A stretch of DNA of 64,000 nt from a virus (lineage: Duplodnaviria; Caudoviricetes): positions 2,998 through 66,997 of the IMG/VR virus record IMGVR_UViG_3300009500_000015. One strand, 5' to 3'. Below are positions 375 to 1,578 of the stretch, in pieces (position 1 is the stretch's first letter; each line of letters begins with the position of its first letter). The position numbers were made by a program, and so were the translations under genes. The notes beneath the pieces were generated by a model. It saw only the letters and a list, made by a program, of their open reading frames with translations, did not search any database and was not told the origin of the DNA.

Positions 375-524
375 AAGCGAGCAGAACGTAAATTATAAGA
401 GAACGACAGACCCGCACTGAGAGTGGAACATATCAGATGGAGCAACTAATACAGATAGGCTAGAGATTGTGAGAACGAGCAAATGAAACCGAACTAAACG
501 AGAGTAGAACGAACTAAACACCAT
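375..524 (+). repeat. Dual-motif ~35-nt array 1 (TIGR-like), about 4 units, directly upstream of the Nop-like gene
   Basis: A-type motifs (GAnnGA) at 401, 436, 473, 507; B-type (GAnnGT) at 384, 419, with degenerate copies at 454 and 491; array ends just before the AAGGAG RBS of ORF 541. Confidence 0.75.
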
Positions 525-540
525 AAAAAGGAGCAAGAAA

Positions 541-1488
541 ATGCCAAAGGGAAGAGTAGCGGTATTGGAAGAGGTGCCGGAAGTCTATAAGCCGGTCGTA
601 GACAAGCTGACCAAGGCGCTAAAAGAAGCGGCGGAGAATCTAGGGCGCGAGGAGGCAAGGTTTCTTGTCGATACGTATTATCAGATTCAAGAGCATAGGA
701 TCGCCATGAGTGCTCAGAGCAGAACGCTTGCAAAAAATGAAGAGCCAAACGTCTTGCTCGCATGGCTTGGCGAACAAAACGAAACGCTAGAGAGTCGAAT
801 TAAACTAGCCCTAGACCTCTATACCGATCGGTTTGTTGTCGGGCGCTGGTGCAAGGCAATTGTAGGGATCGGCCCGGTCATCACGGCCGGACTCATAAGC
901 CAGATCGATCCGGCCAAATACAACTACATTGGATCGGTCCTGCGGTTTGGTGGTTTTGACCCGACGCTCGAATGGAACAAGGGCGAGAAGCGCCCGTGGA
1001 ACGCGGACCTTAAGGTCTTGTTCTATAAGATTGGCGAGTCGTTCGTTAAGGTGCAGAATCGTGACAACGACTACTACGGTAAGGTGTTTCGCAAGTGGCG
1101 CGATGAGTATGAAAGCCGCAATAAGCGCGGCAAGCTAAAGCATCTGGCTGAAGCCAAGCTGAAAAAATATAAAATTGGCAAGGATACGGAAGCCTACAAG
1201 GCATATGTTCAGGGCAAGTTGCCACCCGCCCACCTCCATGCCATGGCGCGCCGCAAGGCGGTAGCGCTTTTCTTGGGGCATTTCTGTCAGGTCCAATGGG
1301 AAGATTGGCACAAAAGACCGTTTCCTCGCCCGTGGGTTTTTTGCTTTGCAGCGGATGGGGCAAGCGCACCGCATAGCGAAGAATCTTTCGTCCTGCCGCC
1401 AAACTACACACCTCTTGAGCGTGGTAATTTAGACCAATATATAAACCAGCAGCACGAAGTTAAAAAGCGCCAGAAGCCAAAAGACTAG
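541..1488 (+). CDS. TasA-like Nop-domain / IS110 C-terminal (Transposase_20-like) protein lacking a nuclease domain
   Basis: Helical N-terminus, GIGPVITAGLI helix-hairpin motif, FGGFDP, PWN..LK and C-terminal H..A.RK...FL..F resemble the IS110/Nop C-terminal domain; no DEDD RuvC-like N-terminus; flanked by dual-motif arrays. Confidence 0.8.
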   Translation: MPKGRVAVLEEVPEVYKPVVDKLTKALKEAAENLGREEARFLVDTYYQIQEHRIAMSAQSRTLAKNEEPNVLLAWLGEQNETLESRIKLALDLYTDRFVVGRWCKAIVGIGPVITAGLISQIDPAKYNYIGSVLRFGGFDPTLEWNKGEKRPWNADLKVLFYKIGESFVKVQNRDNDYYGKVFRKWRDEYESRNKRGKLKHLAEAKLKKYKIGKDTEAYKAYVQGKLPPAHLHAMARRKAVALFLGHFCQVQWEDWHKRPFPRPWVFCFAADGASAPHSEESFVLPPNYTPLERGNLDQYINQQHEVKKRQKPKD

Positions 1489-1498
1489 AGCCTGGGGG

Positions 1499-1578
1499 AA
1501 CAAAGCTACCGCTAATGAAAGTAAAAGTGGATTAAGCGAGCAAATAAAGTGGACAGTAGAATACTCTGGAATGAACAA
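1499..1578 (+). repeat. Short dual-motif array 1b (about 2 units) between the Nop-like gene and the HNH gene
   Basis: GAAAGTAA-A (1517), AAGCGAGCA-A (1534), GACAGTAG-A (1552), GAATGAACA-A (1569) at 17/18/17-nt spacing. Confidence 0.65.

Follow-up and report, generated by a model that had tools for sequence, protein, structure and literature searches.

The TIGR-Tas systems constitute a published family comprising over 20,000 loci (Faure et al., Science 2025, PMC12045711). Their arrays begin and end in edge repeats, which are truncated, and the box motifs of the repeats can diverge between loci; TasA binds the processed guide RNAs, called tigRNAs (PMC12045711). The structure of TaTasR (PDB 9mty) originates from the same study of Faure et al. 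2025, and TasA has been described as an RNA-guided transcriptional repressor (preprint 10.64898/2026.09.09.750476). As the flanks inspected around tas in published surveys were 5 kb, and up to 10 kb, long, arrays located beyond 10 kb would not have been recorded in these surveys. A near-complete phage genome of 67 kb provides a compact natural example for the study of the role of nuclease-free TasA in phages and of its targets.

The window analysed here is a stretch of 64,000 nt, corresponding to bases 2998-66997 of a 66,997-bp IMG/VR virus record with an estimated completeness of 96%. Taken as a whole, the observations reported below are best explained by a phage-borne dual-repeat TIGR-TasA system, in which one tasA gene is supplied with guides from six array segments; we assign to this reading a probability of about 0.86.

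The tasA gene and its product

The first-pass annotation of this DNA had proposed an ORF with IS110-C/Nop motifs and no DEDD/RuvC domain, encoding a TasA-type protein. This ORF is present as described and intact, and encodes 315 residues; the phage genome contains a single copy of it. The protein matches the NCBIfam equivalog NF052498 (TIGR_Tas_endo, "TIGR-Tas system RNA-guided endonuclease") with 168.9 bits (E-value 1.5e-49), for a curated cut-off of 100 bits. The single sequence matches the solved structure of TaTasR (9mty) with an E-value of 4.3e-5. When a family profile built from 32 sequences was compared with the PDB, the E-values obtained were 4.4e-25 for TaTasR and 2.9e-14 for SpTasH, with the IS110 recombinases behind (IS621, 1.6e-5; ISCro4, 2e-4). 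The alignment of IS621 is limited to the RNA-binding part.

The AlphaFold model of TasA (pLDDT 85.3, pTM 0.82) consists of helices only, with no strand. Three long N-terminal helices (residues 14-96), which resemble the coiled-coil dimerisation part of Tas proteins, precede the Nop domain, and the family alignment also places the N-terminus on the coiled coil of the relatives. When this model was compared with the PDB using Foldseek, the top 10 matches were all cryo-EM structures of TasH/TasR (E-values of 3e-6 to 6e-5; TM scores of 0.45-0.69, depending on the normalisation), followed by IS110-type recombinases at ranks 12-18 and then by noise only. The expected structural similarity to Nop/IS110-C proteins was thus recovered, with TasH/TasR first and IS110 recombinases next. 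The motifs noted in the first-pass annotation fall in invariant columns of the family, which correspond in TasA to GIGP (109-112), RP (151-152), H231, R238, and F244. The C-terminal tail of about 25 residues is peculiar to this protein.

No nuclease domain was found in TasA by Pfam, and neither a RuvC/DEDD nor an HNH fold is present in the AlphaFold model. The protein has no significant match in Pfam and no match in PADLOC, and tblastn and megablast searches against GenBank phages returned no match. In PHROGs, the ORF is labelled "transposase" (phrog_4285, 4.7e-34). The family counts over 2,500 homologues, which are about 270-290 residues long and exhibit 46-61% identity, and it has 315 matches in IMG/VR contigs. 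As the curated HMM, the comparison of the profile with the PDB and the fold all indicate Tas, and as no nuclease domain is observed, the product of this ORF is, judging from sequence and model, TasA, a Tas (Nop-domain) protein without nuclease.

With regard to the processing loop, the residues Y289 and H296 of SpTasH correspond, in the profile alignment, to W265 and A276 of TasA, the next histidine being H278, two residues further on. Most relatives exhibit the motif PY......GH at these positions; the tryptophan at the position of the tyrosine is also found in the closest TasA relative and in TaTasR. The loop comprising W265, A276, and H278 is modelled with low confidence (pLDDT below 50). Because W265 and A276 stand at the positions of the SpTasH pair, within a loop of low confidence, self-processing of the guides by TasA is uncertain.

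Grammar and detection of the arrays

The grammar of the arrays was derived from an alignment of 47 edge-type and 42 loop-type repeats, taken from all arrays. [quoted passage not shown] Six array segments are present in the genome, for a total of about 42 units. The repeats open with GA (5') and close with YRA or nnA (3'), in place of the published CCA/UG, and the two repeat types agree with each other in their 5'-terminal GA and 3'-terminal A. The spacer columns hold less than 0.25 bit of information. Arrays mostly start and end with a repeat of the GAACGAGCAA type, which is often truncated; D1 and D2 exhibit degenerate copies at one or both ends. In every array, the strand bearing the motifs is the sense strand of the neighbouring genes. 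The dual-repeat grammar with two spacers, which had been put forward from the first inspection, is borne out with a period of 35 nt.

Table 1 Features of the tasA locus, of the distal arrays, and of the array unit. Positions are those of the window.
Feature	Position or length	Strand	Description
PDZ-domain ORF	ends at 371		located before array A
Array A	384-516	+	upstream of tasA, about 3.5 units, short and degenerate; loop-type repeat at 384 (partial first unit), edge repeats at 401, 436, and 473, terminal edge repeat at 507
Ribosome-binding site	526-532		AAAGGAG, between array A and tasA
tasA	541-1488	+	315 residues
Array A'	1498-1578	+	downstream of tasA, two units closed by a terminal edge repeat (1569-1578); the edge repeats start at 1498, 1534, and 1569
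HNH gene	1571-2212		stand-alone HNH
terS	2205-2699		small terminase subunit
Array B	2690-3123	+	12 units and a 3'-truncated terminal edge repeat at 3114
ASCH-like gene	3095-3451		ASCH/PUA-like "RNA-binding protein"
Array C	20044-20406	+	about 10 units, 18.6 kb from tasA; found with the array-B matrix and a generic regex detector
Array D1	25354-25100	-	about 6 units, inside a leftward operon
Terminator-like hairpin	25084-25064		after array D1
Array D2	25023-24681	-	about 9 units, in a phase different from that of D1
Predicted sigma-70-like promoter	25989-25962	-	TTGACA-16-TATACT, 11/12 matches, consensus match only
Edge repeat	10 nt		GAACGAGCAA-like; conserved G1, A2, G5, A6, and A10
Spacer A	8 nt		no conserved position
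Loop repeat	9 nt		GAnnGTnnA; conserved G1, A2, G5, T6, and A9
Spacer B	8 nt		no conserved position

A two-motif weight matrix was trained on array B only, whose units, aligned by eye, exhibit an edge-to-edge spacing of 34-37 nt and scores of 18-28 bits. This matrix recovers phased units in arrays C, D1, and D2. Over the whole genome, it gives 39 single-unit matches, compared with 3.8 expected from shuffles, and the matches outside the arrays are isolated, without phased neighbours. For the two arrays flanking tasA, we scored chains of five elements (R1-R2-R1-R2-R1) and obtained 21.5 for 401-516 and 32.0 for 1499-1578. The maximum was 17.2 (mean 6.6) over 40 dinucleotide-shuffled genomes and 2.4 on the real plus strand outside the arrays. 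The arrays with a period of about 35 nt previously noted on both sides of the ORF are hence refined to A and A', and the larger arrays with the same grammar that had been reported elsewhere in the phage are confirmed as B, C, and D1 plus D2.

In B, C, D1, and D2, conservation of the key repeat positions reaches roughly 90% or more, while the other repeat positions drift; it is lower in parts of A and A' (11/15 and 12/15), the key positions of the edge repeats of array A being kept in 20/20 cases. These counts per array are partly circular, since the matrix used to place the units gives credit for those very positions. Neither Tandem Repeats Finder nor a generic repeat finder detected the arrays, since the repeats are too short and too degenerate, and no Rfam family covers them.

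Surroundings of the arrays

Arrays A, A', and B lie beside packaging genes, array B being located between terS and the ASCH-like gene. Array C is located in the intergenic region between divergent genes that precedes a rightward gene block. Arrays C and D are both found in unannotated, putative early gene blocks, downstream of promoter regions bearing the octamer TGCTCAGC, and a strong consensus promoter is present at D only. Based on its match to the consensus, this promoter would drive leftward transcription through D1 and D2.

Several observations concern the same regions. A near-consensus sigma-70 promoter on the plus strand (TTGACG-16-TATAAT, with a TG extension) stands back-to-back with the minus-strand promoter (25962-26023), and the pair is probably an early divergent control region. 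In the segment 19039-32032, TGCTCAGC occurs in 9 copies where 2.4 are expected, a count reached by none of 100 shuffles. Two copies (20019 and 20045) are found at the 5' end of array C. Three others (25943, 25974, and 26023) surround the divergent promoters located ahead of array D, those at 25943 and 25974 flanking the minus-strand promoter. From its sequence and distribution, TGCTCAGC looks like the operator of a phage regulator. Arrays C and D enclose a block of unknown genes: ten ORFs tested between or beside them (20383-25903), including an ORF of 320 residues on the minus strand (22251-23213), have no match in PHROGs or Pfam. This last ORF was considered as a possible second Tas-like gene and rejected, as it is dissimilar to the Tas family (hhalign probability 0.2); no second Tas-like gene was found near arrays C and D.

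Other genes were annotated in the window. The start of the ASCH-like gene (phrog_986, 8.4e-18) falls within the last unit of array B, and its only start codon is a TTG, with no ATG ahead of the conserved HELK motif. On the minus strand, at 28018-29445, a ParB-like N-terminal domain is fused to a DNA methyltransferase (phrog_498, 4.7e-138; phrog_620, 5.8e-49). In published work, ParB genes occasionally adjoin TasA; the ParB-like fusion of this phage is 27 kb away. Two adjacent tRNA genes are located at 43988-44138 (Rfam, 43.7 and 49.1 bits). At 63854-64000, about 24 hexamers TGACCA (12-nt unit TGACCCTGACCA) run off the end of both the window and the record.

Comparison with related phages

Arrays were searched for in related viruses with a detector requiring GAnnG[AT], partners at 17-19 and 34-37 nt, and clusters of at least 5. 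Of 83 related viral loci, 62 were found to have phased arrays, all of them on the tas strand and none on the opposite one, an asymmetry which serves as an internal control for the detector. In 14 whole related phage genomes (40-96 kb), no detected array is more than about 6 kb away from tas, and all share its strand. Orthologues in other phages thus carry arrays, in 62 of the 83 loci and in all 14 whole genomes, as anticipated for a TIGR-Tas system. In the phage studied here, D1 and D2 lie about 23-24 kb from tasA and on the opposite strand, and array C is distal as well (Table 1); distant or opposite-strand arrays of this kind were found in 0 of the 14 related genomes.

The closest TasA (P0002, 61% identity) is encoded on a contig, L101, which otherwise shares almost no genes with this phage. 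After its tasA gene, L101 exhibits an array (10862-11542) of about 19 units of GAACGAGCTA, 8 nt, GATTGTTGA, and 8 nt, and hence the 35-nt grammar. Its repeats are nearly those found here, and its edge repeats are much more uniform. Only one near-match, at chance level, was observed between the spacers of L101 and those of this phage. In 46 arrays of relatives in which the repeat types could be separated, the repeat-to-repeat layout is 18+18 nt in 41, and the 18+17 nt layout is exhibited by the closest relative only. Relatives in the same clade exhibit GA...CCA; in one of them (L002), the unit is GAGTGAGCCA, 8 nt, GAGAGTGCCA, and 8 nt, with the same skeleton and a canonical CCA box.

The repeat grammar thus follows the phylogeny of TasA, which is the behaviour anticipated of a protein paired with its cognate RNA. 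Since the L101 contig has otherwise almost no genes in common with this phage, the module comprising tasA and its array appears to move between unrelated phages.

Search for targets

Spacer pairs were compared with the genome of the phage itself in both arrangements, with gaps of 0-2 nt, and no match was found at 0-1 mismatch. With 2 mismatches, 5 matches were obtained, compared with 6-15 for shuffled spacers. These results thus give no support to self-regulation through perfect pairing. When related phage and prophage DNA (1.4 Mb) was searched, 10 matches with one mismatch were obtained, compared with 4-21 in the controls, and there is no enrichment. Transcriptional control and competition between phages, the roles put forward in the first-pass annotation, are hence candidate roles. 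We estimate that a bipartite site of 16 nt should recur many times by chance in scans of a whole collection. Similarly, the resemblance between the spacers at 20106 and 20314 is, as estimated from pair counts, within what chance would produce.

Proposed mechanism and alternative explanations

For the steps that go beyond sequence homology, we relied on the work on relatives (PMC12045711; preprint 10.64898/2026.09.09.750476). By homology, TasA would dimerise through its N-terminal coiled coil and would bind tigRNAs of about 35 nt. The arrays would be transcribed in the direction of the surrounding genes, and the transcripts processed and loaded on TasA, the precursor RNA being presumably cut inside the edge repeats. 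In the resulting complex of a TasA dimer and a tigRNA, the two spacers would pair with opposite strands of the DNA, spacer A with one of them and spacer B with the neighbouring stretch on the other. As TasA has no nuclease, this complex would block transcription or replication at the target instead of cutting it. The targets most likely lie outside the phage and belong to the host or to rival mobile elements. Since the arrays are distributed over three or more separate transcription units, the phage would probably produce distinct guide sets at different moments of infection, all of them serving the single TasA in trans.

That all the scattered arrays are functional and used by one TasA as time-staged guide sets is a tentative proposal, to which we give somewhat less than even odds. 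If true, the phage would have different RNA-guided DNA-binding specificities at its disposal at different stages of infection. These arrays would also be the first natural "orphan" TIGR arrays located far from tas, and they would offer a handle on the role of TasA in the life cycle of phages.

Alternatively, the main action of the arrays could be in cis and on RNA. TasA would then bind and cut the repeat-bearing leaders and intergenic stretches of the polycistronic transcripts of the phage, which would uncouple or tune the expression of flanking genes such as the HNH gene, DNA targeting being secondary or absent. This would agree with the sense orientation of all arrays and their position in, or at the start of, operons, with the ATG at 1571 being included in the terminal edge repeat 1569-1578, with the overlap between the last unit of array B and the start of ORF 3095, and with the fact that no DNA targets were found in the phage genome or in the 1.4 Mb of related DNA. 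However, the spacers are fully variable and of fixed length, as needed for guides and unlike a mere processing site; moreover, homologous TasA proteins bind and repress DNA targets (preprint 10.64898/2026.09.09.750476). In the 14 relatives, the arrays simply follow tas. We therefore consider a role mainly in cis improbable. The stand-alone HNH gene itself directly follows array A', with its start codon in the last repeat, and its HNH motif is recognised by Pfam (PF01844, 6.5e-07), so that TasA and this protein could be imagined as the two parts of a split TasH-like nuclease cutting the targets. This is very doubtful, as none of the 83 related loci has a homologue of the HNH gene within about 4 kb of tas, and as the best solved relative of the protein is the HNH domain of ZRANB3 (1.2e-12) and not TasH; for the same two reasons, the protein was rejected as a partner of TasA acting in trans. 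The gene immediately precedes terS, and the slot just before terS is the usual one for packaging-associated HNH proteins. Judging from sequence and position, it is most simply a packaging-associated HNH.

PHROGs and several other sources call the family "transposase" or IS110, and some relatives exhibit PF02371, as would be the case if the ORF was a decayed IS110-type transposase and if the repeats were unrelated purine-rich intergenic repeats or protein-binding iterons. We give next to no credence to such a remnant: the Tas structures score far above the IS110 recombinases, the threshold of the curated Tas model is passed, and the ORF is intact and conserved over more than 2,500 homologues. 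The repeat grammar, in addition, tracks the phylogeny of TasA, and the arrays are locked to the strand of tas in 62 loci. An IS110 transposase identity was itself rejected, as the DEDD/RuvC domain is missing and the model contains no domain with strands. A dual-repeat TIGR-TasA system, with guides for a nuclease-free DNA-binding protein, is thus the reading that we retain.

Comparison with known systems

The system is a TIGR-TasA, a member of the published family, and the scattering of its arrays, its 35-nt unit, and its altered processing loop make it a modest variant. One tasA gene corresponds to about 42 guides, which are distributed over 25 kb of the genome, in separate transcription units and on both strands, some of them under promoters bearing the putative operator. 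The 35-nt unit, the non-canonical boxes, and the altered processing loop are common to this system and its closest relative. This 35-nt variant may be of use for array-finding tools and for understanding the covariation of protein and guide.

The nearest described systems are the dual-repeat TIGR-TasA systems, e.g. FpTasA of Flavonifractor plautii (PMC12045711). Both comprise a solo Nop-domain protein that is phage-borne, edge repeats that alternate with loop repeats, two short spacers in each unit, and arrays on both sides of tas with truncated edge repeats at their ends. The unit is 35 nt here, whereas it is 36 nt in the published systems, and the boxes are GA...YRA or nnA instead of UG...CCA. 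The present system further differs by its additional arrays located 18.6 and about 23-24 kb away, the latter on the opposite strand, and by a tryptophan in place of the processing tyrosine.

With SpTasH of the Salicola phage CGphi29 (PDB 9W03/9W04; PMC13421893), which is the best Foldseek match, TasA shares the Nop domain (profile E-value 2.9e-14), the phage origin, and spacers of 8+8 nt. In contrast to TasA, which has no nuclease and exhibits W265/A276, SpTasH has an N-terminal HNH nuclease and the self-processing pair Y289/H296. TaTasR (PDB 9MTY) is the best profile match (4.4e-25) and exhibits the same PW...H variant of the C-terminal loop, with a tryptophan at the position of the tyrosine; unlike the present system, it has an active RuvC domain, 9-nt spacers, and CCA/UG boxes. 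MbTasA, which is the TasA assayed for repression, and other nuclease-free Tas repressors (preprint 10.64898/2026.09.09.750476) are similar in being Tas proteins without nuclease, and TasA is likewise expected to be an RNA-guided DNA binder or repressor. The proteins characterised in that preprint are stem-loop binders, whereas the TasA described here is associated with compact dual-repeat guides. Finally, the IS110 bridge-RNA recombinases IS621 and ISCro4 exhibit a related RNA-binding, Nop-like C-terminal domain (1.6e-5 for IS621; Foldseek ranks 12-18). In contrast to these recombinases, the present system lacks a DEDD/RuvC domain and transposon ends, and in place of a single bridge RNA it exhibits many tandem guide units.
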